This document shows positions 255-20,217 of a DNA stretch of 64,000 nt, one piece after another. The number at the start of each line of letters is the position of its first letter. Position 1 is the stretch's first letter. The position numbers were made by a program, and so were the translations under genes. Source of the stretch: Desulfomonilia bacterium (lineage in GTDB: Bacteria; Desulfobacterota; Desulfomonilia; UBA1062); the NCBI GenBank assembly GCA_963664325.2, contig CAXXDQ010000003.1:704001-768000 (forward strand), in the 5' to 3' direction. The notes below the pieces were generated by a model. It saw nothing but the letters and a program-made list of their open reading frames with translations. It was not told the origin of the DNA and did no database searches.

Positions 255-355
255 TAAAAAATACTGGGTTCAATAGATAATTGGCACCGCTTGGCCGGTG
301 AAGACCTGTCTTAATTATTTGCCGTGTAAAAAAATACTGGGGCAGCGCTGGGGCA
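255..355. repeat. Short direct repeats beside the tRNA 3' end (AAAAAATACTGGG x2; CTGGGGCA x2 with 11-bp period)
   Basis: TAAAAAATACTGGG at 255-268 and again near 327-341; CTGGGGCA at 337-344 and 348-355. Confidence 0.55.
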
Positions 356-427
356 AATGGAGAAAAAACAAGATTAAGGGTTAAAGATGGAATGCTATTA
401 TAACCTATATAATAGCGATTTAACAAG

Positions 428-512
428 TGCCCGGGGCGGGGGTCGAACCCGCACGGCCTCAGAGGCCGAGGGATTTTAAGTCCCTTGTGTCTGCCGATTC
501 CACCACCCGGGC
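428..512 (-). tRNA. tRNA-Leu (anticodon TAA)
   Basis: Reverse complement GCCCGGG TGGTGGAATCGGCAGACAC AAGGGA CTTAAAA TCCCT CGGCCTCTGAGGCCG TGCGGGTTCGACCCCCGC CCCGGGC A: acceptor stem, D-loop GG, TAA anticodon, long variable arm, GTTCGA T-loop; CCA not encoded. Confidence 0.97.
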
Positions 513-648
513 ATGACGTTTTTTGCAAACTAATATTAAGTGTTTAAACATGTCAAGCTATACATATAAAGGTAATGACAAATAAACTCTCGATATGTGT
601 TCTGGTTTTCTTCAGACAACATAACACAGATAGTCTACGCAAGATTCA

Positions 649-1782
649 TTAAAAAACATACCGCCCGCCCACGCCTGCATTCAGTCCGTAATAATTATTT
701 TTCTGATCTGGATGGTTAATGTTTTTATCGTCAATAAGGTTAAAAATCCCGGCTGATATGTTCCATTTGAAATTGTCAGAATGTTTCATTTCAATTCCCC
801 CTGACAGTTCAAGCTTTGTCCTTGAACCTATATAATATGGAGAATCTTCCGAATACGCGTTGGGGCCGAGATACATGAAAGCCAGACCGCCTATAAGCGA
901 TGTTTTCGTATTAAGAAAGTATTTATATAAGCCGCTTGCATCATATTCCTGGCCATGACTGTTTCTGGGTTCGGGAGCAAAACCTTCTTCGCCCATAAAT
1001 TCACTTTTCGCACGGACTACCATGCTGAGATCAAGGTCGACTTCATATGAAGGTTTCGAATAGACGCCGTTGACGGAAACAGCGAACATGTTCCCTTCTT
1101 TGTAGTACTCGTTGCCGTCCTGCTTGTCTTTGCCGTATATGGCATATTCAAGGAACAGGTTGGCCTGCCAGTCATCGCTAATCAGGTATCCGCCTTTTGC
1201 AGTAAACGTAACAATATCGCCCGGGTCATACTTCTGAAGCTGGTCGCTGAAATCATATTCGCCCTGCCAGAGGAAACCTGCGCCCAGGCCCGCGATCCAT
1301 CTATCCCACTCCTTTGATACCGCCAGATAAGGATTGACGTTAAAACCTTCTCCGTATGTCGTGATAGGCATAAGGTCGGGTATTGTCAGCAACACCATAT
1401 CCGATTGAGGCAGGTTTGTTTTGCCGGTGGGGATGTTGAGTCCAAGTCCGAAAAGCATATCAACAGGCAGTTTGTCTTCAATCTTGTATGTTCCGTTCAG
1501 TTTGGTATCGAGAAAGTGAGTCAGAGTCGCACTGTCTGCGCCGGACTGTTCTACATGCGTATAGACCAGCGCATTGAGTAGTGAAAATTCAAAATCCTTG
1601 AAGACTGCTTCCAGCGTAACAGGTATAAATGTCTGAATGCCGGTATCGGAATGATTGTCCCGCCATGCATTGAGCATAAGGCCGGATTCCGCTGAATAAT
1701 TCTGTGCGTTTAAGGGGAACACAAAAAAAGAAGACAGACATGAAATCATGAATATCCGCATCAGATAATAAGGCTTTCTCAT
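649..1782 (-). CDS. Outer-membrane beta-barrel protein of unknown specificity
   Basis: Signal peptide (…PLNA|Q), amphipathic beta-strands rich in Y/F/G, LNIPTG motif, C-terminal beta-signal (GGRYVF); SD GAGGGG upstream. Confidence 0.75.
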   Translation of the reverse strand: MRKPYYLMRIFMISCLSSFFVFPLNAQNYSAESGLMLNAWRDNHSDTGIQTFIPVTLEAVFKDFEFSLLNALVYTHVEQSGADSATLTHFLDTKLNGTYKIEDKLPVDMLFGLGLNIPTGKTNLPQSDMVLLTIPDLMPITTYGEGFNVNPYLAVSKEWDRWIAGLGAGFLWQGEYDFSDQLQKYDPGDIVTFTAKGGYLISDDWQANLFLEYAIYGKDKQDGNEYYKEGNMFAVSVNGVYSKPSYEVDLDLSMVVRAKSEFMGEEGFAPEPRNSHGQEYDASGLYKYFLNTKTSLIGGLAFMYLGPNAYSEDSPYYIGSRTKLELSGGIEMKHSDNFKWNISAGIFNLIDDKNINHPDQKNNYYGLNAGVGGRYVF

Positions 1783-1810
1783 TTACAACCCCTCTTTATT
1801 CTCGATAATA

Positions 1811-4699
1811 TCACGGCCACAATCTAACCAGTGAGAAATCTATGGCATCGTTCACCACCAGACCGACTCCCCCGGCTGCGACAATTTTTCCGTCCGGCTG
1901 CATGGACATGGCGAAAGCCCCTGTATCAACGTCCATTTTAATTATCAGGTATCCCGTGCCGCTTGCAAATGTTGAATCCAGAGATCCGTCGGCAGTTAGC
2001 CTTGCCACTATCATTGAGTGCTCCTGGTCTGTGTTTCTGACCCATCCGGCAAGGTATATTTTGCCGTCCGACGGATTTACATCGATTGCATAACAGGATG
2101 CGGCTTCATATCCGGGAATCTCTATCGTCTTAATGCCGCTGGCATTATCTCCAAAGTCCGGATCAAGGGCCCCTGTCGCAAGATTATATTTGGCGACTGC
2201 GATCTTATACATTTCAGTATACTCAATGCCTGTATTGCCGGCTGCAATGATGCTGTCCTGTGTTATTGCAATTGCATTAATTTCGGAATGCACTTCGTCT
2301 CCTATCTGGGTCAGCACATATCCATCCGGAGAGCCGAAAGAAGTGTCAAGGCCTGTGCCGTCGGCATTGAATTTTGCGACCAGGAACACCCATCTTGAGG
2401 TATTTGAGAGATATAACATACCTGCTGCTATAATCTTGCCGTCTGCAGGGACTATCGCCGCAGCGTTTGCAGTCACAGAAGTAAAGGGTTCAATTTGCAG
2501 CATTGAATAGCCATTGGAGCCGAATGATGTATCGAGAACGCCGGATTCGAGATACCTGATGAGCATGAAGTCATCTGAATTCTGGGTGGTGCTGTAGGCG
2601 TCTCCAACTGCGATAATGCCCCCTGACTGGTTCTGGTAGGCCATTGACCTGAATTTCGCATGCGAATAATTCGGAGGATTGGGGACGATAAGCATATCGG
2701 TGTCTTCGTTTATTGAGCCGTCCGGGCCGTATTCGGCAAAAAGGAAATACTCTTCCATATTATCTTCTGTGAAATAATATCCCCCTGTTATTATCTTTCC
2801 ATCGGGCATCAGCACTGCAGAATATGCCGAGTATGCCTTATAGTATATATTGGGTACCGGGGTTATGACAGTTCCGCTGTTTCCGAAAGATGAATCCGGT
2901 GAGCCGTCAGTATTGTATCTGGCCAAGGCTATTCCCGGTCCCGAACCGTTTGTTGTAAAACCCGCTGCAACAAGTTTTCCATCAGGCTGTATAATAAGAG
3001 ATTTCACCTCGGCATCCGCATATCCCATAGGAGTTCGGGCGCTCCCGTTATTGCCGAAGCCTGTGTCGACTGAACCGGCAGGGGTAAATTTCGAAACAAG
3101 AGACATATGTCTGTTGAAAGCCGATGATGTGGCACAAACACCTATAGCGACTATACTACCGTCGCCGAGCACTTGTGATGATATTGCACGATGAACGAAC
3201 CCATCCTCAAGAATGGTGATGCCATTAATACCAAAGCTCTCATCCTGGGTCATGTCTGCATTTTTCTTTACTATTGTCGCTTGAGGTGTAAATTCACCGC
3301 CGGAAAAACCTGTGCAGATTATTTTGTTGTCAGGCAGGATATTTATGCTCCTGATTTCTGAATAGCCTTTATCATCCAGCATCGTTCCTGAAATCTCGGC
3401 AGCTCCGCCAGATGTATTGTATGTCGCAAACGCCATTATATTATTGACGCCTGTTGATACAAATCCTCCTGCAACTATTCGACCTGAATTGTCTATGGCC
3501 AGTGATTGAATGACAGACCTATACAAGCCGATATCGGTAGCCACAACGCCTGTGATGCCTATGTTCGAAGCGAACGAGGAATCGATGTCACCGTTTGATG
3601 AAAATCTAGCTACAGTAAATACATTGTGGAGAAATGAAGAATTACCAAATGAATACCCGCCTGCGACGATTCTTCCGGAAGGGTCAAGGGCTATTGAATT
3701 GATGCAGGCGTCACTTGTCCCGACCGGGAAGGCTACATAGCCGTTTGGCGCCCCGAAGTCTGTATTGTCAAGCGAGCCGTCCGGGTTATATCTTACCAGA
3801 GTGAAGACGCTGATATTTGAAGACATTAAATGGATGCAGCCGCCGGCGAGGATTTTCCCGTCATTCTGTACAGCCAGAGAATATATGGCCCCGTCGTCGC
3901 CCAATATGGATGTAATGACAATTCCTGTTTTATTGGACCCGAAACCGGCATCAAGTGTCCCGTCAGGATTATACCTTGCAATAGCCCATTTGAATTTCCC
4001 GGCGGAGTTGTCCCAGAAACTGCCTCCTGCAATTATTTTTCCGTCCTTTTGTATTGCAAGCGAGTTGATTCCGGCCAAGTTAAGATCGGTCATGACGATG
4101 CCTTTCTCCCCGAATGCCTGATCCAGTGACCCGTCGGTATTATACCGGGCAAGAGCGAATAATTTCTTTTGACCTTTTAAACACGTCCCTCCTGCGACGA
4201 TTTTTCCGTCGCTTTGAATCGCTGAGGCGTTCATTTCCGCGTTGGCGAATCCCATGGAAGTCCTGACTTTGCCTCCATCCCCGAAACTGACATCGAGATC
4301 CCCTGTTTTCGGCGGACTGACTATGAGTACGCCGGCGTCATTTGTCACGCCCCCTTCAATCTTTATGCCTGTTTTTTCTACCGTATAGAGTATCTTGCCC
4401 GAAGCGTTTTTCATGTAGATGACAAGGGTGTAGTTCTCTCCGACGGGTATGTTTTCAAGAGAACCTGAACGGGCGCTGCACGCCCATGGGCCGCCTGTTG
4501 CAAGTGTTGCGCCTGAGGCGTCCTTTATCTCGGCGGTAACGTTGTCTATGCCGTAGAGAGTACAGTCAAAAGACTCTCCGGTCGATACGGCCTGACCGTG
4601 CATTTTAACGGAGAAACTGAGCGCTCCCGAATCGCCGCCGTCTGAACCGCAGGCCTGGAGAAGCAAAAGCAATGATATGATGAAAATCGCCTGGGTCAT
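1811..4699 (-). CDS. Delta-60 repeat (beta-propeller) lipoprotein with N-terminal Ig-like domain
   Basis: Lipobox LQAC after a hydrophobic stretch beginning at Met 4699 (ORF track starts at 4822; start uncertain); about 14 repeats of GxLDxSFGxxG…QxDGKI(V)xxG…LARY. Confidence 0.85.
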   Translation of the reverse strand: MTQAIFIISLLLLLQACGSDGGDSGALSFSVKMHGQAVSTGESFDCTLYGIDNVTAEIKDASGATLATGGPWACSARSGSLENIPVGENYTLVIYMKNASGKILYTVEKTGIKIEGGVTNDAGVLIVSPPKTGDLDVSFGDGGKVRTSMGFANAEMNASAIQSDGKIVAGGTCLKGQKKLFALARYNTDGSLDQAFGEKGIVMTDLNLAGINSLAIQKDGKIIAGGSFWDNSAGKFKWAIARYNPDGTLDAGFGSNKTGIVITSILGDDGAIYSLAVQNDGKILAGGCIHLMSSNISVFTLVRYNPDGSLDNTDFGAPNGYVAFPVGTSDACINSIALDPSGRIVAGGYSFGNSSFLHNVFTVARFSSNGDIDSSFASNIGITGVVATDIGLYRSVIQSLAIDNSGRIVAGGFVSTGVNNIMAFATYNTSGGAAEISGTMLDDKGYSEIRSINILPDNKIICTGFSGGEFTPQATIVKKNADMTQDESFGINGITILEDGFVHRAISSQVLGDGSIVAIGVCATSSAFNRHMSLVSKFTPAGSVDTGFGNNGSARTPMGYADAEVKSLIIQPDGKLVAAGFTTNGSGPGIALARYNTDGSPDSSFGNSGTVITPVPNIYYKAYSAYSAVLMPDGKIITGGYYFTEDNMEEYFLFAEYGPDGSINEDTDMLIVPNPPNYSHAKFRSMAYQNQSGGIIAVGDAYSTTQNSDDFMLIRYLESGVLDTSFGSNGYSMLQIEPFTSVTANAAAIVPADGKIIAAGMLYLSNTSRWVFLVAKFNADGTGLDTSFGSPDGYVLTQIGDEVHSEINAIAITQDSIIAAGNTGIEYTEMYKIAVAKYNLATGALDPDFGDNASGIKTIEIPGYEAASCYAIDVNPSDGKIYLAGWVRNTDQEHSMIVARLTADGSLDSTFASGTGYLIIKMDVDTGAFAMSMQPDGKIVAAGGVGLVVNDAIDFSLVRLWP

Positions 4700-4815
4700 G
4701 TTCAAAACACCCCGGTCGGCAATTGACCGATGGGATGTGATTAAAGATCTATTTACGGGTATGAAGCCCTCATTTGACATTGACAGTAATCCTTCGTTTG
4801 TTATTTTCATAGGTT

Positions 4816-5742
4816 TCACCATGTGAAGTTGATTTTTCCGGTTTTTGATTCTTTTTCTATATCATTCGGGTTGGATTTTCTGAAAGTTGCCGTATTCATG
4901 CTTATACTGGCTGTTGTGGAATTCTGGTTTTCCATTTCCTTGATTGTGGTATCCGTCCTGACATTCTTGGGTGCAAGCTTCATGTTCTGAAGCTGCCTTG
5001 ATGCATCGGCAGCGGGTTTCAGGCCGGGATCGGCAATTCTCGCCTTTTTGTAATAGACGGCAGCCTGTCTGTAATTTCCCCTGTCGCTGCTGTCCAGGCC
5101 CAAAGAAAAATAATACAGCGCCTTATAACTCGTTGTGAACGGTTTCTTCAGCCTTTCCATCTGTTCCTTGCTTAAAGATATGTTCAATTGGTCACAGATT
5201 GCGAACAAAAGCTGCTTTTCGATGTCGAATATGTTGTCCAGCTCTCCATGAGCCGAAGGCTTTCCGAGTATCTCTTTAGTCCTCACTCCAAGCAGGTAGG
5301 ATGAAGCCTCGATACCCGTAGCTCCAGAGCTTGAAATATCTCCGCCAATAATATAGTTGGCCCTTAGAAGCTTCCCGATTCTCGGGGCGGCCTGAACATC
5401 CACAATCCCCGAGGCGCCCATTTTAAGCTCTTCCACAAGGGCCTGAAGTTTTACCCTTTCCAGGAGGTTTATGCCGGGGACTTCGGCCAGATCGGTCATA
5501 AGCATGAATGCAAAACCCTTCTGCAAAGGGTTAAGATCGGCCTTCCCCGATTTGTTGTTAAAATAAAGTACAGCCAGATTATTGCCTGAGGGAGAGGCAT
5601 CAAGGTTTTTCTCCTGCCTTATCGCCTCCTTCGCCCAGTCAAGCTCGTTTTGCGTAATCACATCTCCTGCAGAAGCCGCCGTGTTTGAAGCCAGGAGCAG
5701 AACAGCAACTAAAACAGACTTAAAGCCTTTTATCGGACTCAT
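4816..5742 (-). CDS. CsgG/HfaB/FlgO-like domain protein with TPR motif
   Basis: Signal peptide (ASA|GD); LAVLYFNN…MLMTDL…LLERVKLQALVEEL…RIGKLLRANYIIGG pattern; TPR-like KALYYFSLGL…GNYRQAAVYYKKA…DP; SD GGAGG places the start at ATG 5742. Confidence 0.75.
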   Translation of the reverse strand: MSPIKGFKSVLVAVLLLASNTAASAGDVITQNELDWAKEAIRQEKNLDASPSGNNLAVLYFNNKSGKADLNPLQKGFAFMLMTDLAEVPGINLLERVKLQALVEELKMGASGIVDVQAAPRIGKLLRANYIIGGDISSSGATGIEASSYLLGVRTKEILGKPSAHGELDNIFDIEKQLLFAICDQLNISLSKEQMERLKKPFTTSYKALYYFSLGLDSSDRGNYRQAAVYYKKARIADPGLKPAADASRQLQNMKLAPKNVRTDTTIKEMENQNSTTASISMNTATFRKSNPNDIEKESKTGKINFTW

Positions 5743-6359
5743 ATAAAGTACCTCCATAATGGCCAGATCCGGAAAACGGCGGATCCGTGAACAAATGAAT
5801 TTTTAACGTTGCTGTTGTTGACAAGGTCTGACTAGGAATTCTATGTTGTCCCGCTTTATCCTCACCTGAAACATAGCAGTCAGAGGCCGGCAGGAGGAGT
5901 AGTGTATCATTAAATGACATGCACATTGGGACACTTCCGATTGCAGGATTTGTTGAACTTCTATCTTTCATAATAACCATCCTGGAAATTTATTAAGAAA
6001 GAAAAGCCGTGATGCGTTAAAGTAATAATTCACATAAATATTTTAAAAGTCAAACCCTGCTTTGCGATCGACACGTATAATTTTTTGTTTTGACATGCTC
6101 CAACTCGACAAATCATGAATGAAAAACTTCTGATTGCATGGCTTTTGCGGTAAGCAGATTATTTGATTGGCCGATTATTCTGGGAACTGTGTTTGATCTG
6201 TTTGAAGCCGGAGATGACCTCTTTCGCGAATTTCATGCAACCTGAAAACATCTGCATTGAAGTTGTTCCGAATGATAAGGAAAAGCTCCCATGTGGCGCT
6301 TGTCCTTTTGGCAGGCCTGTGTTAGGGAATTTTTTGGATGAATCACTGGAGGTGCTCTC

Positions 6360-7559
6360 TTGAATTACAGGTTTAAAACTCACGATTATATCATCTTTGC
6401 TCTCAGTTATGTTTTCTTTGCCCTTTATGCAGTTGACATGACGGGCCAGGCTGTACTTCCAGTCGACCTGCCGGCTTGGGTTTATCTCATTGTGGCAGTC
6501 CTTCTTAATGTCTGGGTATTACCATTGCCAGGCATTCATCCAAGGCTTCCAAAACCGGAAGTATCCCTGCCCGAATTGCCGCCGTCAGAAGAGATAAAGG
6601 TTATCCCGAAAGAAAAGCCTGTTCCGGAAAAAGAGGCTGTATCAGCACAGAAAAAACTCGAAAAGGGACTCTCAAAAACCCACAAAGGTTTCATAGACAG
6701 GATAGCTTCGGTATTCAGCAGGCATGAAAAGATTGACGCCGCTGTTTTAAATGATCTGGAAGAAACGCTTGTCGGTACGGACATAGGGATCAAGACGGCG
6801 TACAAGATATTCGAAGACATTAAGAAAGAAATTGTATCAGTGGACAGTGCAGATGCTGCAATGAACATGGTTCGTGCGGAAATCAGCCGTATTCTGGCAC
6901 AGAGGGAAAGGCATCTCGATATCACAAATGGCGTAAAGCCGTATGTTATAATGGTAAGCGGGGTCAACGGTTCGGGAAAGACCACGACCATCGCCAAGAT
7001 AGCATGGCTCCTCAAGAACCAGGGCAAGAGCGTTATTATCGCAGCAGCGGACACATTCAGGGCGGCTGCAATAGAACAGCTCGAGCATTGGGCGAACAAG
7101 TCCGGTGCCGATTTTATAAAATCCCAGGAAGGGGCGGACCCTTCCTCGGTTGCCTATGACGGCCTGGAGGCTGCAATTAAGAGGGGGCATGACGTGCTCA
7201 TAATCGATACCGCCGGACGCCTCCATACCCGTGAAAACCTGATGGAGGAGCTGAAAAAGACAAAGCGGGTTCTGGATAAGAAGATGCCAGGCGCGCCGAA
7301 CGAGGTGCTGCTTGTCCTTGATGCGACAATAGGCCAGAACGCCATCGAGCAGACACGGCAGTTCAACAATGCGATTGATGTGACCGGGATCGTACTGACA
7401 AAAATGGACGGGTCGTCAAAGGGCGGGGTCATAGTCGGTATAGCAGATGAATTTGATATACCTATACGTTTCGTGGGTGTCGGAGAGGCCATGGATGACC
7501 TTCAGGAATTTAACGCGGGTCATTTCGTGGAAGCCCTTTTCAAGAATAATGCCGAATGA
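6360..7559 (+). CDS. ftsY: Signal recognition particle receptor FtsY with N-terminal membrane anchor
   Basis: GVNGSGKTTTIAK, DTFRAAAIEQL, DTAGRL, TKMDGSSKGG, GVGE motifs; TTG start. Confidence 0.97.
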   Translation: MNYRFKTHDYIIFALSYVFFALYAVDMTGQAVLPVDLPAWVYLIVAVLLNVWVLPLPGIHPRLPKPEVSLPELPPSEEIKVIPKEKPVPEKEAVSAQKKLEKGLSKTHKGFIDRIASVFSRHEKIDAAVLNDLEETLVGTDIGIKTAYKIFEDIKKEIVSVDSADAAMNMVRAEISRILAQRERHLDITNGVKPYVIMVSGVNGSGKTTTIAKIAWLLKNQGKSVIIAAADTFRAAAIEQLEHWANKSGADFIKSQEGADPSSVAYDGLEAAIKRGHDVLIIDTAGRLHTRENLMEELKKTKRVLDKKMPGAPNEVLLVLDATIGQNAIEQTRQFNNAIDVTGIVLTKMDGSSKGGVIVGIADEFDIPIRFVGVGEAMDDLQEFNAGHFVEALFKNNAE

Positions 7560-7566
7560 GGGAAAG

Positions 7567-8565
7567 ATGATTAAAATTTCTCCGGAAAGGCTTACCGTTA
7601 TATTTGATGCAATGTCCCAAAAAAACATTCTCATTATAGGCGACATCATGCTGGATGAGTATATCTGGGGTACGGTCGAACGCATATCCCCCGAAGCCCC
7701 GGTGCCTGTTGTGAACGTCAGGGAAGAGACATTCAGGCTGGGCGGGGCCGGAAATGTCGTCAGGAACCTGAGAAGTCTTAATGCCGGCGTCAAGATGTTT
7801 TCCGTAATAGGCAGCGACAGACAGGGAGAAACGATATTTGACCTTCTCATGGACGAAGGGGTCGATGCCGGTGGCCTCATAAAAGATGATTTGCGCAGGA
7901 CGATAGTCAAGACACGGATAATCGCGCATACCCAGCAGGTTGTCCGGATCGACAAGGAAGACAGGGAACACATCTCCCCCGACAACACGCAGAAACTCTT
8001 ATCGGCAGTAAAACAGAATATGACAGGCGCTGATGCAGTCATTCTTTCAGATTACGGGAAAGGCCTGCTTAACACAGGGCTTATTGCGGATATAATTGCC
8101 GAAGCAGGTAAATACGGTCTGCTCGTGAGTGTTGATCCGAAAGAGAGGAATTTTCCTCATTATAAGAATGCCGGCATAATTACGCCGAACAAGAAGGAGC
8201 TTGCCTTCGGGGCTGGCATGTCGATTTCCTCTGAAAAGGATATGGCTGAGGCGGCGGGCCGTATATTTGACATGCTCGGATGCAGAATGATTCTTGCTAC
8301 GCGCGGGGCCGAGGGCATGAGCCTTTTCGAAAGCAGGGACGATGTGACCCATATCCCGACCGCAGCGAAAATGGTATTTGATGTGACAGGTGCGGGAGAC
8401 ACCGTCATATCTGTATTTACACTGGCTAGCGCGTCAGGTGCAACGCCTGTCGAGGCGGCGGCAATCTCGAATATTGCGGCGGGTATCGTTGTAGGCGAAG
8501 TCGGTGCGGCGACAGTCGGTTTCGAAGTATTGAAACACGCATGCATGGAGGAACTGGGTGGGTAG
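7567..8565 (+). CDS. rfaE1: D-glycero-beta-D-manno-heptose-7-phosphate kinase (RfaE domain I / HldA)
   Basis: GDIMLDEY, RISPEAPVPV, GGAGNV, SDYGKG, DVTGAGDTV; start set at ATG 7567 behind GAGGGAAAG. Confidence 0.93.
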   Translation: MIKISPERLTVIFDAMSQKNILIIGDIMLDEYIWGTVERISPEAPVPVVNVREETFRLGGAGNVVRNLRSLNAGVKMFSVIGSDRQGETIFDLLMDEGVDAGGLIKDDLRRTIVKTRIIAHTQQVVRIDKEDREHISPDNTQKLLSAVKQNMTGADAVILSDYGKGLLNTGLIADIIAEAGKYGLLVSVDPKERNFPHYKNAGIITPNKKELAFGAGMSISSEKDMAEAAGRIFDMLGCRMILATRGAEGMSLFESRDDVTHIPTAAKMVFDVTGAGDTVISVFTLASASGATPVEAAAISNIAAGIVVGEVGAATVGFEVLKHACMEELGG

Positions 8566-9085
8566 CATACATCTTCCCAGGGATGTGATGCTTTTCGCAA
8601 GCATCATTTACCGGAAAAACCCGGACGATGCACTCGTGCTGCTTGAAAAGGAATTTGGAAACGTTGTTTATCAAAGCATTGAACTGCCGTTTGATTATAC
8701 AGATTATTATGAAACCGAGATGGGTACAGAGCTTAAAAGAATGATAGTCGCCTTCGAGCGGCTCGTCCCTAGAGATTTCATGCCCGAGGCTAAAATAAAG
8801 TCAAACGGGATTGAAGATGTTTTTTTAAAAGATGGGAAAAGGTGTATAAACATCGACCCCGGTATATTGTCTCTTGAAAATGTATGTCTGGCAACGACGA
8901 AGCCCTACAGTCACCGAATATACCTGTCCCAGGGCATATGGGCGGAAGTTACATTGATTTACAAAGGCGATACATATTCGGGTCTTGAATGGACGTACCC
9001 GGATTATGCTTCGGAAGAACTTAGAAAAGTCTTTAAGGAAATCAGAAATATATACAAAGGAGGGCTGAAATGCCAGGCAGCATGA
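8558..9085 (+). CDS. DUF4416-family protein
   Basis: FDYTDYYETEMG, NIDPG, LATTKPYSHRIYL, WTYPDY motifs; position upstream of yicC. Confidence 0.8.
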   Translation: MGSIHLPRDVMLFASIIYRKNPDDALVLLEKEFGNVVYQSIELPFDYTDYYETEMGTELKRMIVAFERLVPRDFMPEAKIKSNGIEDVFLKDGKRCINIDPGILSLENVCLATTKPYSHRIYLSQGIWAEVTLIYKGDTYSGLEWTYPDYASEELRKVFKEIRNIYKGGLKCQAA

Positions 9086-9927
9086 CAGGGTATGGCCATG
9101 CGGAAGAGGGTGGATATCTTGTTGAAATAAAGGGTTTGAATCACAGGTACAAGGACATTCGCGTAAAGCTGCCGCGCGATCTTAACCAGATTGAGATGCA
9201 GGTCCGTTCCTCTGTTTCCGACTCGATTCAGAGGGGAAAAGTGGATGTCATAATAACAAGGAATATTGCCGAGGCGGAAAAGCAGGGACTTAAAATAAAC
9301 TGGGATTATGCAAAAGCGGTTTACACCGATTTGAAGACAATGGCCGGGCATTTCGGAGGCGAGGCCTCTTTCAGGGACGTTATTTCAATTCCAGGTGTTG
9401 TAGGAGAAGAAGAAAAGCTGATCGAGGAGCAGTGGGGATTGATCAGCATGCCGCTTGAAAGGGCTTTAAAGGCTTTTCTTGATTCAAGATTGGAGGAAGG
9501 GGAAAAGCTGGGCAGGGATATGGCTGAAAGGATACAGGTGCTTGAAAGCATACGTTTATCGATAGAATCATCTTCTGCGGCAATGCCGAAGATATTTGCC
9601 GAGCGGCTCAATACAAATATAAACAGTCTGCTGCAGGGTAAGATCCAGGTTGATGAAGTAAGGCTTGCACAGGAGATTGCCATAATGGCTGAACGGTGCG
9701 ATATAACTGAAGAGGTGGTAAGGCTTAAAAGTCATTTTGATGTTTTCGGGCAGGCTTTAAAATCGGCAAGTGCTGCAGGCAGGAGGCTGGAATTCATACT
9801 CCAGGAGATAAACAGGGAATTCAATACGATAGGGTCCAAGTCTCAGGATGCTTCTATCAGCATCTTTGTCATAGATGCCAAAACAGAGATTGAGAAGATA
9901 AGGGAACAGTTGCAGAATATAGAATGA
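9070..9927 (+). CDS. yicC: YicC/YloC-family endoribonuclease
   Basis: SMTGYG, NHRY, DITEEVVRLKSH, GRRLEFILQEINREFNTIGSK, IREQLQNIE. Confidence 0.95.
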   Translation: MPGSMTGYGHAEEGGYLVEIKGLNHRYKDIRVKLPRDLNQIEMQVRSSVSDSIQRGKVDVIITRNIAEAEKQGLKINWDYAKAVYTDLKTMAGHFGGEASFRDVISIPGVVGEEEKLIEEQWGLISMPLERALKAFLDSRLEEGEKLGRDMAERIQVLESIRLSIESSSAAMPKIFAERLNTNINSLLQGKIQVDEVRLAQEIAIMAERCDITEEVVRLKSHFDVFGQALKSASAAGRRLEFILQEINREFNTIGSKSQDASISIFVIDAKTEIEKIREQLQNIE

Positions 9928-13485: not shown

Positions 13486-14892
13486 TTACCACGCTATGTT
13501 AAGGTTCAGTCCTGCAGCAAAGGAATTTCCCTTTACCTCATAACTGACCTGGTTAAGCCAGCTCTGACCGCCGGTAACACCATCCTTAATGACTGTTATA
13601 CCCTTGAGCTGCTGATATTGAAGTACTCCTTCAACCTTAAGCGGCTGTTTGAATATATTCCATGGGAATATGAACTGATACCCGGCCCCGAGCGAGAAAA
13701 TATTTTTGTCAAGGTCGATATAGTTGGATATTTTGCCGGACTGGTCAGGTACAGGAGAAGGCTGATATACGTAACCTGCATTGATGTTCAGGTTCTTGAT
13801 GCCCTTGTATGATACGCCTATGCGGTAATTGGTCGTGTCGCTGAAGTCCGGGTCTGGATATCCGTTGACACTGTCTGTAGTGGATAACCCATACTTGCTC
13901 CATTTCTGGAGGTTGGCCTCTATCGAGACAAGTACCGGTTCGGTGTCGATTGCCAGGCCCAGTGAATATTCTTCTGGCGTGAAATAGCAGTTCATGTCCA
14001 GCATCATAGGCATGGTATAAGTAATTCCGCCAATCTCCAGTTCTGTTGTAACCGGAATAGGCCCCAGCTTGAGTTCCTGCTCGCCTCGCCAGGAGAATCC
14101 GAGTTTGATTTTTGCCTTTGTCTTTTCTTCAAGCACAGGGGAAGCGAGCAATATGCCAGCCGTAGGTACATATTCAAATACTGCTCCGAATTCGGATTCG
14201 GCCTCGACATCCTGGTATGAATTATAAGGACTATCGCTGCTGCTTCCGCTGAACAGGCCGTTCACATAGAATTTACCGGGGCCGTGCAGCATGGCCTGTA
14301 TTCCCCCGCCAATATATGCAATATCCTTGTAAGCCTCAATCCCAAGTCCTGCTGCAAGAGTAATACGGTTGATGTCATCTCCGTAACGGATAAAATGAGG
14401 CTGGTCAGGCGGATAGTCATGAAGCCTGTACGATACATCACCCTGTTCGGGAATGCCGGCGGCGATTCCCAGTTGCGCATGAATGGGCATTTTGACGATC
14501 TTGTTAATATCGATCATCAGGCCCAGAACAGGTATTCCCAGATTAAGCCCGTTTGCAGCAGTCGCCTCGGTCGGATCGTTTCTGACGCCTGAATCGATAT
14601 TATTGGGGTTGTTGTATATTTTGAGCGAACCGCCGCTGAGCTTATCAACCTTTATACTGGGAGATGTGTACAGGTATTCAAGCGAAAGCCCGAGGCCCTT
14701 GCTTTGGGCAAGACCGGCCGGATTGTAATATGCGGCGGAGAAGTCGTCCGCAACAGCAGTGAATGCCCCGCCTAATGAAATGGCCCTGTTGCCGATGCCG
14801 TACGTATCGGTATAGCCGGAAGCAAAAGCCGGCGAACTGCACATAGCGACTGCAAGAATTATCGATATATAAAGGATTGTTTTGTTTTTCAT
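13486..14892 (-). CDS. FadL/OmpP1/TodX-family outer-membrane channel (copy 2)
   Basis: Signal peptide (SPAFA|SG), GNRAISLGGAFTAVADDFSAAYYNPAGL, C-terminal W; start ATG 14892 behind AAGAAGGA. Confidence 0.9.
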   Translation of the reverse strand: MKNKTILYISIILAVAMCSSPAFASGYTDTYGIGNRAISLGGAFTAVADDFSAAYYNPAGLAQSKGLGLSLEYLYTSPSIKVDKLSGGSLKIYNNPNNIDSGVRNDPTEATAANGLNLGIPVLGLMIDINKIVKMPIHAQLGIAAGIPEQGDVSYRLHDYPPDQPHFIRYGDDINRITLAAGLGIEAYKDIAYIGGGIQAMLHGPGKFYVNGLFSGSSSDSPYNSYQDVEAESEFGAVFEYVPTAGILLASPVLEEKTKAKIKLGFSWRGEQELKLGPIPVTTELEIGGITYTMPMMLDMNCYFTPEEYSLGLAIDTEPVLVSIEANLQKWSKYGLSTTDSVNGYPDPDFSDTTNYRIGVSYKGIKNLNINAGYVYQPSPVPDQSGKISNYIDLDKNIFSLGAGYQFIFPWNIFKQPLKVEGVLQYQQLKGITVIKDGVTGGQSWLNQVSYEVKGNSFAAGLNLNIAW

Positions 14893-14914
14893 AGTCTTAT
14901 CCTTCTTCATTGTA

Positions 14915-16276
14915 TTACCAGCTAAAGCTGAGATTGATTCCGCCGGCAAGGGCGTTGCCCTTGACTGTGTAGCTCACCTGATCCACCCAGGTTGCCCCTT
15001 TTACGCCATCCTTGTTCACATTCAACGTTTGAAGAAGCTGGTATGAAAGCATTGCCCCCACGGTCATCGGTTTATTGAGTGCAAAGGGGACATTGAAAGT
15101 ATACCTTCCCCCGAGGGAAAATATGTCCTTGTCCATATCGATATAATTGGATATCACGCCTGACTGGTCGGGCACAGGCGTCGGCTGATGGCAGTAGCCA
15201 AAAGTGGCGTTGGCATTTTTATTGATTTTCCATTCAACTCCAAGACGGTAATTGATGGTGTCCTTGAAATCAGGCATGCCTGCAAATCCTGCTTGTGTGA
15301 GTTCATTTACCTTTTCTTCAGGCATTATATCGTAATCGCTCCATTTCTGCAGGTTGGCCTCAGCTGAAACCATCAGGAAATCAAAATCATAAGAGGCGCC
15401 GAGGGAATATTCTCTCGGCGTATAGAATGCCCAGAGTCCCATGACGATACCGATATTTCCCTGAAATGGCGAACCTATTGCAGTAATCAGTGTGGGAAGA
15501 GGGTCTACTTCAACCTGCTCCTTGTCTCTGAACGAAAAACCGATCTTAAGTTTCTTGTCCAGAGGCGTTACCATTATGCCGAAAAGGGGATCCATCTTTA
15601 AGAGATTGGACTGCTTTACCTCTGCGACGGCTTCCCCGTTCGAAGATGTCATATTCAGCCCGTCGACATATATCATCCCGTCGCCGTAAAGCATTGTCTG
15701 TGCGCCGATGCCGACATAGACGAGGTCTTTCCAGCACTCGACGCCAATGCCTATCGCTGCATGTATACGGTCGATATTATCGCCGTATCTTATGAAATGA
15801 GGCTGATCGACAGGGTAGGAATATATCCTGTACATGGTGTCACTGTGTTCCGGCATGGAGATTGCCATACCGAACTGGACATTTATGGGCATGTTAACAA
15901 TGTCGTTTACATCTATTCCCAACCCGATGAGCGGTATTGAAAGATCAAGTCCCCTTGAACTTCCCCTGTATTCAGTTGGGTTCGTCTTGACACTTCCGTT
16001 GGGCGTTGTGACAACCAGGTCGTTTCCCGCATCGTCTTCAACTTTTATCTTGGGTGACGTGTACATATAATCCAGGGTGACATAATTCCTGCTGCTTTGC
16101 GCAAGCCCGGCCGGATTGTAATAGGCGGCTGAATAGTCATCTGCAACAGCGGTAAAAGCGCCTCCCAGCGAAACGGCCCTTGATCCGAATCCCCAGGTGT
16201 CGGCAAAACCGGCGGCATGGGCGCTAAGGCCTGAACAGAGAAATACCGATAAAAAAAGAAGCAGTTTCTTGCCCAT
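14915..16276 (-). CDS. FadL/OmpP1/TodX-family outer-membrane channel (copy 1)
   Basis: Signal peptide (SAHA|AG), GSRAVSLGGAFTAVADDYSAAYYNPAGL, C-terminal SFSW. Confidence 0.9.
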   Translation of the reverse strand: MGKKLLLFLSVFLCSGLSAHAAGFADTWGFGSRAVSLGGAFTAVADDYSAAYYNPAGLAQSSRNYVTLDYMYTSPKIKVEDDAGNDLVVTTPNGSVKTNPTEYRGSSRGLDLSIPLIGLGIDVNDIVNMPINVQFGMAISMPEHSDTMYRIYSYPVDQPHFIRYGDNIDRIHAAIGIGVECWKDLVYVGIGAQTMLYGDGMIYVDGLNMTSSNGEAVAEVKQSNLLKMDPLFGIMVTPLDKKLKIGFSFRDKEQVEVDPLPTLITAIGSPFQGNIGIVMGLWAFYTPREYSLGASYDFDFLMVSAEANLQKWSDYDIMPEEKVNELTQAGFAGMPDFKDTINYRLGVEWKINKNANATFGYCHQPTPVPDQSGVISNYIDMDKDIFSLGGRYTFNVPFALNKPMTVGAMLSYQLLQTLNVNKDGVKGATWVDQVSYTVKGNALAGGINLSFSW

Positions 16277-16376: not shown

Positions 16377-19300
16377 TTACTTGACAGAAATATTATTTAG
16401 CAGATTTTCAAAAGTCAGTATCAGGTTGTCGTTTTTCTCAGTGCCCGGTTTGAAAAGTGAAACGCCATTACCTTGTGTTTCCTCGTAAAGCTCCACAAGG
16501 ATTCTCTGCATGAATTCGCTGTCTTCGTTTACTCTGTTCAAGTTGATAAGTTTAATAATATTGTAAGCCACGGAATCTTCTTTAACCCCGTCTCCGTCAT
16601 TGTCCACAGCAGTGAAGAGAGCCTTTATGAACCTGGCTTCTATGCTGATATCGTAGTAGTTTGCTCCCGCTTCTTCTCCACCCATTATCATACTCATCAT
16701 TCCTCCACTGTTTAACATAGGCCTAATAACATCAGGAGAAGCGGTCAGTTCCAAAAGGAAGTCTTTTAAAGGCGTCAAGTCGTACAGGCCTGGATCTTCC
16801 GAACTGCCGGTAACTAATTGAGCCACCTTTTCAGTAAGCGTAACAGGCTCGGCCGGCCCGGTTAAATGTGTAAGCAGGCTGCTGGGTCCTGTAATGGGGG
16901 TTGTCCCCGTAAGGAGACCAGCCGGGTTGTAAGTGGCGTCCTGGATGTCCATCATCCTGAAGAGCAGGGTTTTGCCGTTTGATACAAATGGGTTTTCCTC
17001 ATCGTCGATATTGGCTTCGAGATAATCCATCAGTTGTGTCATGGTGGAGGCATCTGAACTGTCTGTGGATGTGGTTATCAAATCCGAAAGGATCGGGCTT
17101 ATCATGTCGTAATCTTCAACAACAAACTGATTTGAATGATCAACAAGCGCATCAAATAACCCGCTGTCTTTAAGTGATTTGCCCATTACACTTGCGAATC
17201 TGACTATAGTGTCGCGGTTATCCGCATTCAGCAGGGCGGCCGCATTTGTAATGAAAGTCCTGTTCTCTTTGTCTTTGTTGACAAAAAGTTTTCTTATTAG
17301 ATTGTCCTGGTCATCGTTATCCATTTCCTGCATGTTGAGGTCATTGATGACTGCATCGAGCAGGGATGTTTCATTCAAACCCGTTAAAAACGGAGGTGAA
17401 GCGGCATCCAGTTTTTCAACTGCCCTCAGGGCCAGGTCGAGAACCGGTGCAATTATTCCTGTGGTGTCGCCTGCACGGTTGTTAAACGCAGGCTTTAGGG
17501 CTGTTTCCAGCTCTTTGAAGACCGTTCCCTGGTTATCCTGTCTGAATGTCGCGCTGCTGCCGTTCTTAAGCGGTACATATGTGTCATAATTGATTTCATT
17601 GAGCTGTGTCATCATATTTACCATATCGCCCTGTGTGTTTGTATCCCAGTAATGCGCCATCATCGGGGCAAAGAGAGAGAACAGTTTGTGACGGACAGCC
17701 GTCTCTCCTTCTGAGGGTTTGGTCTTCCAGCTATCTGAATTGGGGTTGCTGTAATTGCCTGCAAGCTCGACAAACGCCGGGAAAGGATCAAGGATGCCGT
17801 CCGCGCTTTTTGCCCCCGGGTATAACGATTTAAGTAAATTGAATATACTGTTATCTTTTCTGAAAATGTCCATCATCGAATCTTGCATCATGTCAGCCAT
17901 ACCATCATAGGTCTTGGCTGTAAAAATTGTGAGGCTGCCTATCTTCAATGCAAGGAGCTGATATTTCTTTACATAGAGCACCCAGTTAAGAGTTTGTGCA
18001 GGTGTTTTCTTGGCTGTTCCACGTGCGTCATCGGTCCAGTATTTCAATGCAGAAGCCACTTCACCTACTGTCCATTCAGCCATGTTGAGTGTTCTTTCCT
18101 TTGAGACTGGAAGACCTAGGCTTACATCATCCGGCGAAGACATCAGGTTTATGATCTTCATCCTGTTGAGGATGTTGTCCGTATCGCCCGCTTCCTGCAT
18201 CATGTACATTAGCGTCCTGAGCTCGCTTATCTTAACATCAGAAGAATCCTTGCTCAGACCATACATATTACCCTCAAGTGCAGCATTCAATCCTGCTGCA
18301 ATTCCGGGAATATCAGCCTTGTCGATTCTGGCAAGTCTGGGTGCTAGTCCTTTAAGTACATCAGGGTTGGTTGTGGGTGCGATGCCGTCCAGGGCTTTGT
18401 CAACATAAGCCTGCAATGTTGCTTGATTTATTGAAAGGACATCCGACAATCCCTGGAGTGTGTCTGCCATGTCCGTGCTTGTCAGAAACAGATTAAGAGA
18501 GTTTGACAGGTTGCGGGTGTCATTCTGAATATCAACACTCCAAGTCTGTCGCAGGGCTTTCATTACGCCCTTTTCAGTGCCCCAGATAAGTTTTTTCTGG
18601 TCATCGTTATAAGGGCCAACTACCGCAGGTTCCTCATCGGGGGTATTTGTTGGGGTATAAGGACCGGTCAATGTACTTAATGAATCAAAAAGGTCCCTGA
18701 TATCATCAATGGTAACGGAATTCTGTTCGGTCTTTAATAAATAATCGAGCATCCTGATGCTGTTATGGATATCCTTATACTTGCCGTCCTGATCAATTAG
18801 GCCGTTTGCAACCCTCATCAGGTTATCTAAGTTGTCGCCTTCCCTGAGCGTGTCAAGAGATATTCCGCCGCTGCCGCTGAGCGCGTTTTTGAGGATTTCA
18901 TCATCAGCACCCATGGCATAAGAGATCATAGGATAGATATTCTGGGTAAGGCAGTCCGAACCGGCCTGCTTGAGAACCTGATTGAGCAGCAGACCGACTT
19001 TTGCTTTAACCGCCATATCTAAAAGGTCTGACATGGTATTGGGATGGTCCAGATCATACAGATCGGGATCGGCCCCATACTTTGTCTCATACTCTGCCTT
19101 CTCATCCAGCAGATACTGATGGACGTTTTTAAGGATATTGAGAAGTGTCTGGTAATCCTCTTTTGTCGTATATCCCTGTTCAGCAAGGGTATTGAGCGTC
19201 TTCAGGCTGTTGCCTAAAAGATCAAGGACCTGTCCGAATGTAAGATGTCCGACAAGTTCATTCAGATTGTCCTCTCCGGCAAGGAGTTCTTCTGTATTTA

Positions 19301-19418
19301 TCCCATCGAAGGAAAGACTGTCTCTCGTTACGTCCGAGCGCTTGTCACATGCCGTGATCGACATGCCGAGAAGAACCAGGACCGCTATGATAAAATTGCT
19401 GGAATTTTTCATACTCAT
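16377..19418 (-). CDS. Large (~1013 aa) lipoprotein of unknown family, predicted mostly alpha-helical
   Basis: Start ATG 19418 behind GGAGG (ORF-track start at 19694 is spurious); MSMKNSSNFIIAVLVLLGMSITAC lipobox; L/D/N-rich amphipathic helices; DNDGDG motif near the C-terminus. Confidence 0.85.
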   Translation of the reverse strand: MSMKNSSNFIIAVLVLLGMSITACDKRSDVTRDSLSFDGINTEELLAGEDNLNELVGHLTFGQVLDLLGNSLKTLNTLAEQGYTTKEDYQTLLNILKNVHQYLLDEKAEYETKYGADPDLYDLDHPNTMSDLLDMAVKAKVGLLLNQVLKQAGSDCLTQNIYPMISYAMGADDEILKNALSGSGGISLDTLREGDNLDNLMRVANGLIDQDGKYKDIHNSIRMLDYLLKTEQNSVTIDDIRDLFDSLSTLTGPYTPTNTPDEEPAVVGPYNDDQKKLIWGTEKGVMKALRQTWSVDIQNDTRNLSNSLNLFLTSTDMADTLQGLSDVLSINQATLQAYVDKALDGIAPTTNPDVLKGLAPRLARIDKADIPGIAAGLNAALEGNMYGLSKDSSDVKISELRTLMYMMQEAGDTDNILNRMKIINLMSSPDDVSLGLPVSKERTLNMAEWTVGEVASALKYWTDDARGTAKKTPAQTLNWVLYVKKYQLLALKIGSLTIFTAKTYDGMADMMQDSMMDIFRKDNSIFNLLKSLYPGAKSADGILDPFPAFVELAGNYSNPNSDSWKTKPSEGETAVRHKLFSLFAPMMAHYWDTNTQGDMVNMMTQLNEINYDTYVPLKNGSSATFRQDNQGTVFKELETALKPAFNNRAGDTTGIIAPVLDLALRAVEKLDAASPPFLTGLNETSLLDAVINDLNMQEMDNDDQDNLIRKLFVNKDKENRTFITNAAALLNADNRDTIVRFASVMGKSLKDSGLFDALVDHSNQFVVEDYDMISPILSDLITTSTDSSDASTMTQLMDYLEANIDDEENPFVSNGKTLLFRMMDIQDATYNPAGLLTGTTPITGPSSLLTHLTGPAEPVTLTEKVAQLVTGSSEDPGLYDLTPLKDFLLELTASPDVIRPMLNSGGMMSMIMGGEEAGANYYDISIEARFIKALFTAVDNDGDGVKEDSVAYNIIKLINLNRVNEDSEFMQRILVELYEETQGNGVSLFKPGTEKNDNLILTFENLLNNISVK

Positions 19419-19529
19419 AAATTCCTCCTGCATCTGTATTATGCAAACGATATGCCGGAATAAGATAATCAATGAAATATTTTTCCCTCCGCATAGTGCA
19501 AACCGCATAATATCTTTAAATTTCTTTCT

Positions 19530-19558
19530 ATTATGGATAAGGTTGATTTTGTTGTCAA
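19530..19558 (-). promoter_or_regulatory. Sigma70-type promoter of the lipoprotein-FadL operon
   Basis: Minus strand TTGACA-17 nt-CATAAT, about 110 nt upstream of ATG 19418. Confidence 0.75.
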
Positions 19559-19692
19559 GATATAATGCTTGGATACGGTTTAACCGAAAATTAGTGTGCG
19601 AAAAATAAAGGAATATTTTGGAAATAAATTTCACACAAACGGTAGGTTTAGTGCTTGACCATTTATCATAAGGTGTCATAACTCGAAATGTC

Positions 19693-20217
19693 ATGTCAGT
19701 AAGAATTTGTGCAGGGGTTTATAAATCAAGAAGGATAGCTTGTCCCGATGATATCAGACCCACTTCCGACAGAGTCAAAGAGGCATTGTTTTCCGCGCTT
19801 CTCATTGATTATAAAGGTCTTGATGTCCTTGATATTTTTGCAGGCAGCGGATCGCTTGGTATTGAGGCGCTCAGCAGAGGGGTTAAAACGGCAACCTTTG
19901 TGGATAATTCAGCCTCAAGCATCAATTTTATTAATAAAAATACTGAGCAATTAGGGATCTCGGAACAGTGCGTCATCATTAAATCCGATGCCTTGGCGTA
20001 CATCAAAAAATGCGGACAGCTTTTCGATCTTGTTTTTATGGATCCCCCGTACAATAAAGGTCTTGCTTCGCAGGTTGGACCTGAGCTATATTTTCTGATT
20101 AAGCCGGGCGGGGTAATGATAATAGAACACTCCCCGAAGGAATTAATATATATGAGTTCATACAAGCGTAAGTCCTATGGAGATACGATGCTGACGTTTA
20201 TAAGAAGGGAGCCGTAA
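19693..20217 (+). CDS. rsmD: 16S rRNA m2G966 methyltransferase RsmD
   Basis: RPTSDRVKEALF, LDIFAGSGSLGIEALSRG, DPPY, YG; upstream of coaD. Confidence 0.95.
   Translation: MSVRICAGVYKSRRIACPDDIRPTSDRVKEALFSALLIDYKGLDVLDIFAGSGSLGIEALSRGVKTATFVDNSASSINFINKNTEQLGISEQCVIIKSDALAYIKKCGQLFDLVFMDPPYNKGLASQVGPELYFLIKPGGVMIIEHSPKELIYMSSYKRKSYGDTMLTFIRREP

Follow-up and report, generated by a model that had tools for sequence, protein, structure and literature searches.

What is a set of three exported genes doing on its own among housekeeping genes? The question is raised by a stretch of 64,000 nucleotides from a Desulfomonilia bacterium (assembly GCA_963664325.2, contig CAXXDQ010000003.1, positions 704,001 to 768,000 of the forward strand), which as a whole we call the window. 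At 649..5742 it holds three open reading frames (ORFs) on the minus strand, transcribed in the order A, B, C. A preliminary description, made from the sequence alone, took them for three co-oriented exported genes, and this is correct: A and C have signal peptides and B has a lipobox. It also proposed that A, as a CsgG/FlgO-like protein with a TPR, and C, as an outer-membrane barrel, form a dedicated translocon or anchor with the lipoprotein B as variable cargo. We argue for a different relationship between the same parts. The locus would be a stand-alone, duplicated outer-membrane end of an undescribed envelope module, with A and C as its core and B as an exchangeable head that docks via the tail of A. 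We consider the chances of this reading being right to be about even. A limited search of the open-access literature found no description of such a module.

A, B and C are three genuine genes. Their arrangement is far above chance expectation, because a paralogous trio in the source genome and dozens of other genomes show the same order, and the three are probably co-transcribed. It is worth considering which of them belong together. The preliminary description had called for a survey of gene neighbourhoods, and this was done by scanning one genome per species with an alignment of the barrel. The best 80 of 86 relatives were kept, mostly from Thermodesulfobacteriota or 'delta' metagenome-assembled genomes and from Nitrospirota. 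The same scan with the single C sequence in place of the alignment found no relative. The ORFs at these loci are simple longest-ORF calls with uncertain start codons, and their lipoboxes were assigned by pattern and visual inspection. A same-strand homologue of A lies upstream of C in 70/80 loci. In 8 of the 10 loci without A the contig stops no more than about 1.4 kb upstream of C; some of these show a middle gene that is cut short or a fragment rich in Cys. At L058 and L077, where 9 kb upstream of C were read, there is truly no A. In a phylum sample of 301 genomes C is found in 11, and strong matches to A (E<=1e-100) are found in exactly those 11; 5 further genomes have weaker A-like matches only. 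Since the two genes are linked in so many loci and co-occur in the same genomes, the A-C pair is, by this survey, the conserved core of the module. The module appears to be distributed across the Thermodesulfobacteriota, the Nitrospirota and their relatives.

The gene between A and C is the part that changes, which the preliminary description had anticipated. A lipoprotein of 228-1704 aa lies there in 26/70 loci, and in 2 more (L026 and L082) it lies after C. There is no gene between A and C in 42/70 loci, a count that includes 2 with a lipoprotein just after C, and in several of these loci a C-terminal extension of A fills the gap. The payloads of the middle genes are very different from each other. 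They include arrays of He_PIG, Big_9, cadherin and PKD domains, 13 PKD domains with an RCC1 propeller (1704 aa), beta-helix/DUF1565/NosD, MopE motifs, fn3, CARDB, Big_5, CarboxypepD_reg and delta-60 repeats. B belongs to the last kind. It is a delta-60 repeat protein by its matches to TIGR02608 (426.5 bits against a cut-off of 76.5, 13 stretches) and to the Pfam family DUF5122 (252.9 bits, E 1.4e-76, 9 stretches), and at 962 aa with an L-Q-A-C lipobox it is the beta-propeller lipoprotein of about 960 aa that had been proposed. The payload would probably form two beta-propellers.

What the middle lipoproteins share is at the other end. The delta-60 repeats run to the C-terminus of B, and the conserved element of these lipoproteins is N-terminal. 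Every one of them opens with a lipobox and a short G/S tether, followed by an N-domain of one of two types, which we call type-1 and type-2 dock domains; B has type 1. The tether from the lipidated Cys to the dock domain is short, about 8-15 residues. The two types are homologous (hhalign probability 94.7%, E 5.9e-8, a value that comes partly from aligned signal peptides). No Pfam family covers the dock domain of B. A profile of it matches 1396 representative clusters at E<=1e-3, and the domain is N-terminal in 149/150 of the best matches, which are proteins of 137-1287 aa. The paralogous trio of the source genome, on contig C7, shows the same pattern. A' and C' are 57% and 46% identical to A and C. 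B' (466 aa, Ig-like) is related to B in the dock domain alone (tblastn, 39% identity over residues 65-170). B thus looks like an exchangeable head made of a lipid anchor, a tether, a dock domain and a lineage-specific payload.

Payloads are also found on A itself. The Cys-rich MopE motif is fused to the C-terminus of A in L039 (10 copies) and L034, is carried on dock lipoproteins in L018 and L070, and stands alone upstream of C in L058, which has no A. Since the same motif is either fused to A or placed on a dock lipoprotein, these sequences suggest that the C-terminus of A is the attachment point for payloads, covalently or via the tail. A separate clade without a lipoprotein (L038, L042, L045, L048, L049, L059, L064) has a second CsgG-N-like gene (~240 aa) directly upstream of A, and A in this clade has long Cys-rich or TSP_3-like C-terminal extensions.

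The tail is what connects A to the lipoprotein. The classes of lipoprotein (type 1, type 2, none) were set by tblastn and clustering before the tails were scored, by the same analyst, and 67 A proteins were extracted. The tail ends in hydrophobic-x-hydrophobic-x-W in 13/67. All 13 have a type-1 dock lipoprotein, which is between A and C in 12 and after C in 1. Another 12/67 end in I-x-F-P, and type-2 lipoproteins accompany all of them: in 11 the gene is between A and C, in L082 just after C. The remaining 42/67 have other tails, and 40 of them have no lipoprotein. The exceptions are a frameshifted A (L011) and an A with V-N-I-E-W seven residues from its end (L037). On the 65-row set the tail and the dock lipoprotein agree in 65/65, with L082 counted. 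One can imagine that the terminal Trp is kept merely through codon overlap with the start of B. We reject this. The residues before it are conserved too, L088 has an overlap that uses GTG instead of ATG, and L026 keeps its tail though its lipoprotein gene is not adjacent to A, so a start-codon overlap cannot explain the tail.

We propose that the strand G-K-I-N-F-T-W of A pairs with the dock domain of B, probably by beta-strand addition. A complex prediction of A (30-313) with the dock region of B (18-135) from separate alignments gave a median score of 0.49, and one unrelated control gave 0.59, which weighs on neither side of the question of binding. In other lineages the payload is instead fused straight onto the C-terminus of A.

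Several points weigh against this proposal. The association of tail and lipoprotein is phylogenetically clustered, and type 1 is essentially one clade. On a tree of the A core, made without the tail, type 1 is one clade and one long branch, type 2 is scattered, and the three states need 6 changes. Among its sister pairs are L051, with both tail and lipoprotein, and L065, with neither. There are 2 independent contrasts on well-supported branches and 6 on all branches. They all go in the same direction, but a sign test is not significant. The core must also do something for which no lipoprotein is needed, since most loci have none between A and C. Not every dock gene has a tail to go with it. 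The distant dock gene G043 has no tail-bearing neighbour, and extra dock genes without their own tail donor are found after C (L009, L010, L012, L013, L021, L032) and upstream (L008, L011, G209). It must also be noted that the tail of A resembles an ordinary beta-signal of outer-membrane proteins (OMPs), so to judge by the motif it might address the barrel assembly machinery BAM, or the barrel, and not the dock domain. The tail motif ends 5/2944 ORFs of at least 200 aa in the source genome: A, A', two FadL-like OMPs of the window and one other. The two OMPs end in ...G-I-N-L-S-F-S-W and ...G-L-N-L-N-I-A-W, close to the G-K-I-N-F-T-W of A. They are a tandem of FadL/AupA-like proteins at 13489-16276 (-) and 16380-19694 (-), of 487 and 453 aa, with the common ending G-x-N-L-x-[FI]-x-W, and the 1105-aa ORF that adjoins them matched no NCBIfam family.

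Since there were too few independent contrasts among the A proteins, the dock domain was also followed outside the A clade. In the phylum samples its profile is found in 10/301 genomes at E<=1e-6 and in 10/401 at E<=1e-10. 7 of the dock-positive genomes do not have the canonical A-C pair, and 1 of these is cut by a contig end, which leaves 6 that can be assessed. In 5/6 another secreted, tail-bearing protein is encoded immediately upstream of the dock lipoprotein. Three of these donors are Gly-rich ORFs of 98, 100 and 112 aa that end in ...S-V-N-V-S-W, ...S-T-V-T-W and ...D-V-T-I-Q-W. The fourth is a 292-aa protein with CsgG-N-like and PEGA domains that ends in ...A-T-V-R-W, and the fifth is a 426-aa TPR/CsgG-N/TPR lipoprotein that ends in ...S-I-G-V-S-W. 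No C-type barrel is found at 4/5 of these loci, read over up to 19 kb, and the fifth (L098) has no match to C within 3.4 kb. The tail appears to accompany the dock domain whatever body the donor protein has. The loci with the Gly-rich donors of about 100 aa (L088, G029:C36; L092, G212:C320; L093, G133:C119) have dock lipoproteins with PD40 or fn3 payloads and lie in a different conserved cluster, with a caspase-domain (Peptidase_C14) lipoprotein, a DUF4384 protein, Trypsin_2, an LPP20-like protein and a TPR/M48 protein.

These results bear on the idea that A and C flip or export B to the surface, as a Slam-like or curli-like translocon would. All three proteins are exported and seem to be co-transcribed, A and C are linked and flank lipoproteins that vary, 7/37 A proteins have weak TPR_Slam matches (best E 2.5e-4), and C ties in fold with the TpsB barrels CdiB and FhaC, which transport polypeptides. 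However, the TPR_Slam matches are no better than generic TPR matches, and the fold ranking ties C with ordinary porins as well. DUF560 (PF04575), the Slam barrel, is matched by 0/37 members of the C family at E<=0.01, and C goes from its signal peptide directly into its first strand, with the TPR-like helices belonging to A and not fused to the barrel. A Slam structure is not among the fold matches listed for C either, though this carries no weight by itself. A has neither the transmembrane hairpins of CsgG nor its lipid anchor. The barrel is indifferent to the supposed cargo too. Barrels with and without a lipoprotein partner have no class-specific indel or motif and differ at one discriminating alignment column only, and the majority of loci would be translocons with nothing between A and C to carry. 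The tail tracks the lipoprotein and the barrel does not, and tails and docks occur together without such a barrel nearby. This points to docking on an adaptor and not to cargo of a barrel translocon. We consider a translocon improbable, and in this respect the preliminary description is not supported.

The identity of A needs the same care. Residues 62-143 match the Pfam family CsgG (PF03783) with 29.1 bits against a cut-off of 20.8, but only over positions 13-100 of the 210 in the profile. From the N-terminus on, the AlphaFold2 model of A (mean predicted local distance difference test, pLDDT, 82.9) has a helix, then the alpha/beta domain (60-190), helices of TPR-like type (197-258) and a further helix that is conserved (266-280); the tail (281-313) is disordered. 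Foldseek matches the alpha/beta domain to the N-domain of TolB (2hqs, E 2.1e-6), GNA1162, LpoB, the periplasmic part of CsgG, PelC (5t0z, 9h80) and FlgT. Among 37 family members the N-part of CsgG is matched in 37/37, LpoB in 15/37 and TPR_2 in 26/37. By these models A is a member of the TolB-N/LpoB/CsgG-N-like superfamily of alpha/beta domains. There is no lipobox in A. Across the 37 aligned members the signal peptide leads into a mature start G-[QED]-V-[VI]-T, and no Cys is found where it would be cleaved; A30 and G31 are invariant in 15/15 type-1 homologues. After the alpha/beta domain the model has helices and not transmembrane hairpins. Since it has neither the hairpin region nor a lipid anchor, A is a scaffold or adaptor and not a channel of the CsgG/HfaB type. 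The label of a CsgG/FlgO-like protein with a TPR is half right. It is valid only for the shared periplasmic alpha/beta domain, and the model does have TPR-like helices, but the channel part of CsgG is absent and the TPR matches of A itself fall under the Pfam cut-off.

C was described as an outer-membrane barrel, and its AlphaFold2 model is a beta-barrel with a mean pLDDT of 93.8. More than that is hard to say from known families. C matches no curated family in Pfam or NCBIfam, none of its 80 homologues in the protein collection is named, and ESM Atlas gives unnamed clusters only. Foldseek gives generic barrels at TM 0.4-0.5 and no specific family. VIA-align puts 16-stranded barrels on top in a broad tie: CdiB (Z 19.0), OprB (18.4), FhaC (17.7), PorB (17.7), the PelB barrel (16.8), PgaA (16.4) and TamA (16.1). 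Most of the residues that are invariant in the family (N116 P118 G120 G144 G146 N148 N150 P151) are in the region of the loop between strands 5 and 6. This loop sits where porins have their L3 loop, and in the model it could be a constriction or plug.

With these folds in hand, one can imagine that A forms a ring under the barrel of C and that the two export a polysaccharide or another polymer, as PelC and PelB do, with B as an accessory. The parts are the same in kind: the TolB-N-like ring of PelC, the TPR of PelB and a 16-strand barrel. PelC is among the fold matches of A, and the PelB barrel is among those of C. However, that barrel match ties with porins, and A is not lipidated. Of the gene clusters that recur in 5 or more of the 80 loci, none is identified as a glycosyltransferase or polymerase; those that are annotated are a protease, a kinase, a phosphatase, an FHA protein, a sheath protein, an AMP-ligase, a urocanase and a TPR protein. 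The flanks in the window are ftsY, a tRNA and housekeeping genes. We regard a polymer gate as very improbable.

The main rival to our reading is one where nothing is exported. B would sit on the inner leaflet of the outer membrane and face the periplasm, as BamB, LpoB, PelC and TagQ do, and would lend A a lipid anchor through the tail and dock. A, B and C would then be a platform or the input of a sensor. Outer-membrane lipoproteins with beta-propellers that face the periplasm are well known, BamB being one. The fold family of A consists mostly of outer-membrane lipoproteins or of ring and scaffold proteins associated with that membrane (LpoB, PelC, CsgG, GNA1162, FlgT). The tether of B is so short that a periplasmic tail could reach the dock without crossing the membrane, and the pairs of tail and dock without a barrel nearby fit as well, as does the company of kinase genes described below, which include a kinase with a PEGA domain. 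Set against this are the payloads. The 1704-aa protein with 13 PKD domains and RCC1, the Pmp-like beta-helices and the cadherin/He_PIG arrays are typical of extracellular proteins, and some of them would probably exceed the width of the periplasm. This scenario also leaves unexplained why a dedicated 16-strand barrel is the constant companion of A. We think it unlikely on balance, but it deserves to be taken seriously.

We therefore return to the docked head as our preferred reading and spell out what it would involve. The core would be A in a complex with C. A would be a periplasmic adaptor that is not lipidated and that joins a TolB-N/LpoB-like domain and TPR-like helices to a flexible linker at its C-terminus, and C would be a porin-like barrel of about 16 strands. 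Because of the types and sizes of the payloads, the head is most likely at the cell surface. It must be said against our own reading that this is the single line of argument for surface exposure. The head might serve to bind a ligand or as an adhesin, displayed at the outer membrane or outside it, and C might be the membrane element that holds or passes the linker of A. In copies linked to a kinase the assembly would report to a Hanks kinase with a PEGA domain. A bolder version can be imagined as a general 'tail-and-socket' coupling of the envelope. Here the C-terminal strand (G-x-hydrophobic-x-hydrophobic-x-W or I-x-F-P) of diverse secreted proteins would complete or add to the dock domain of a lipoprotein. 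The linker of A would be threaded through the barrel of C, and a periplasmic body would be joined non-covalently to an exchangeable surface head. The result would be an envelope-spanning receptor that feeds a Hanks kinase in most genomes and sometimes a type VI secretion system (T6SS). We consider this version doubtful as a whole.

The kinase connection comes from the other side of C. The preliminary description did not foresee it, and a context of kinase, PP2C and FHA genes, sometimes with T6SS genes, is usual for the family. Two genes are convergent to C in many loci, one for a CsgG-N-like lipoprotein (about 165-185 aa) and the other for a longer protein with AhpC/TSA, TPR, CsgG-N and FlgT_C (about 650 aa). 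Among the 80 loci a PEGA-domain Hanks kinase is found in 30, a Trypsin_2 protease in 31, PP2C in 26, FHA in 16 and a fused VipA/VipB-like sheath gene in 8. Where at least 7 kb downstream of C are available, genes of this module are present in 40/60 loci and absent in 20. The paralogue at C7:801518-812563 (G000; L006 and the start of L087) has A'-B'-C' and then, convergent, a 181-aa CsgG/FlgO-like lipoprotein. Beyond it, also convergent, come genes for an AhpC/TSA-TPR-CsgG-N-FlgT_C protein of 661 aa, for a Hanks kinase with a PEGA domain, for a protease of the Trypsin_2 kind and for PP2C; an FHA gene follows in the divergent direction. T6SS genes do not adjoin this set; canonical TssF and TssC are about 117 kb further, at C7:923-929 kb. 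The 64-kb window has no kinase, phosphatase, FHA or T6SS gene at all. A direct T6SS linkage of the window copy is rejected, as the TssC and TssF of this genome are on another contig. The window copy is a stand-alone duplicate, and its paralogue elsewhere is linked to a kinase. The fused VipA/VipB-like sheath proteins beside the kinase module (L057, L062, for example at 7995-9560, L068, L072, L076, L081) all end in ...V-E-L-E-L-N-W. This ending fits the pattern of the A tail, and as these are an unrelated cytoplasmic family it is probably a coincidence.

The features of the locus are collected in Table 1. A GGAGG at 5754-5750 precedes the second ATG of A, which is the likely start. The stop of B and the start of C are 28 nt apart, and 117 nt separate the stop of A from the likely start of B. 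A terminator-like hairpin was found in this space by a consensus scan, at 4712-4730 (-), with a 6-bp stem followed by G-G-T-G-T-T-T-T-G-A; judged by its sequence it could set the ratio of A to B and C. Downstream of C there is a tRNA-Leu(taa), and upstream of A a divergent ftsY. The gap between A and ftsY is about 600 nt (5743-6360), and the promoter-like site at 6053-6025 would give A a leader of about 280 nt. We see no riboswitch in this long leader, because an Rfam scan of 300-6500 gave the tRNA as its sole match. The remainder of the 64-kb window consists of housekeeping, hydrogenase and chaperone genes.

Table 1. Genes, domains and candidate signals of the A-B-C locus, in window coordinates.
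Feature	Position	Strand	Description
Gene A	4816..5742	-	Secreted protein, putative periplasmic adaptor; 308 aa from ATG 5742; ORF opens at 5757
A signal peptide	5668..5742	-	Sec/signal peptidase I type, no Cys; cleavage before conserved mature N-terminus G-[DQ]-V-[IV]-T
A alpha/beta domain	5188..5580	-	ORF residues 60-190; TolB-N/LpoB/CsgG-N-like fold
A TPR-like helical hairpins	4984..5169	-	Residues 197-258; helices of the AlphaFold2 model
A C-terminal linker and tail	4819..4917	-	Residues 281-313, pLDDT <50; last seven G-K-I-N-F-T-W at 4839-4819, beta-signal-like strand
Gene B	1811..4699	-	Delta-60-repeat beta-propeller lipoprotein; 962 aa from likely ATG 4699; ORF opens at 4822
B signal peptide and lipobox	4649..4699	-	L-Q-A-C, Cys codon 4651-4649; then short G/S/D tether
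B N-terminal dock domain	4313..4627	-	ORF residues about 66-170; two invariant Cys, G-G-P-W motif
B payload	1814..4300	-	About 13-14 delta-60 (DUF5122) repeats
Gene C	649..1782	-	Outer-membrane beta-barrel, 377 aa, about 16 strands, unnamed family; signal peptide; C-terminal ...G-G-R-Y-V-F
C conserved long loop, strands 5-6	1342..1431	-	Residues 118-147, short helix; DSSP of the AlphaFold2 model
Candidate sigma-70-like promoter 5' of A	6025..6053	-	TTGACT-17-AATTAT; consensus scan, weak evidence

Why does this small locus matter? The attachment of lipoprotein or adhesin-like heads to the outer membrane, or their passage across it, is known for few systems: Slam, BAM-assisted RcsF and the export signal of the Bacteroidota. 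A-B-C is a genetically simple case of three genes, with two copies in the source genome. Our reading makes a definite prediction, which is that a strand of 7-10 residues in the adaptor binds a dock domain of about 110 residues that forms the N-terminus in more than 1000 protein clusters. If this is true it would be a new tag for sorting or coupling, by which many 'hypothetical' lipoproteins in sulfate reducers, Nitrospirota and relatives could be annotated, and it would give a handle on sensing at the outer membrane by the kinase-linked and T6SS-linked versions. Even if the prediction of tail and dock fails, the locus is still a well-delimited conserved module.

It remains to compare the module with known systems, and it fails each defining feature that could be tested of Slam, PelBC, CsgG and TagQR-PpkA. 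Slam, or type 11 secretion, uses a TPR domain and a DUF560 barrel to expose lipoproteins such as TbpB on the surface. What the two have in common is a TPR element and a barrel in the outer membrane, with a lipoprotein nearby whose sequence varies and whose gene is often next to that of its own partner. Here, however, the TPR is on a separate protein with a TolB-N-like domain, and the barrel has about 16 strands and is not of the DUF560 kind. The shared element of the lipoproteins is N-terminal instead of a C-terminal barrel domain, and most loci have no lipoprotein. CsgG and HfaB, the channel lipoproteins of curli and of the holdfast anchor, resemble A in the periplasmic alpha/beta domain that gives the partial Pfam match. 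They differ in that A lacks both the lipobox and the transmembrane hairpin region, and the membrane element is a separate barrel. The preliminary description was right that this is not a canonical curli locus and has no curli subunits. No partner genes of the CsgE/F/A/B type or of the hfaA/D type are at the locus: the predicted operon is A, B and C, its flanks are the tRNA-Leu and ftsY, and the annotated conserved neighbours at the 80 loci are genes of the kinase module.

In PelBC a dodecamer of the lipoprotein PelC lies under the TPR/16-strand barrel of PelB as the gate for an exopolysaccharide, as set out in the relevant passages of one source (PMC12141448). A TolB-N-like domain, a TPR and a 16-strand barrel are all present in our module too, which is a similarity of fold alone. 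The parts are split differently among polypeptides, with TPR and barrel separate, A is not lipidated, and no synthase genes were identified nearby. For the regulatory side the nearest parallel is TagQ/TagR(/TagST)-PpkA-PppA-Fha1, the threonine phosphorylation pathway of the H1-T6SS of P. aeruginosa (PMC13713981, PMC5995506). The related loci and the C7 paralogue likewise bring together a lipoprotein of the outer membrane, proteins of the periplasm, a Hanks kinase in the membrane, PP2C and FHA, in some cases along with T6SS sheath genes. This is a likeness of gene context. Neighbours of the threonine-phosphorylation type are absent at the window, partly present at the C7 paralogue (kinase, protease, PP2C and FHA, with no adjacent sheath) and present in 40/60 related loci. 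The differences are that a barrel is present here, that the kinase has a PEGA domain, and that the window copy has no kinase, phosphatase or T6SS gene.

The last comparison is with general principles instead of a particular machine. These are the C-terminal beta-signal of outer-membrane proteins and donor-strand complementation. The tail of A is like them in its resemblance to the terminal strands of OMPs. It is unlike them in that A is a periplasmic protein of the soluble type and not a barrel. That this tail goes so strictly with a single beta-rich domain suggests that a strand is added in trans, and that is the sense in which we would place A and B next to these systems.

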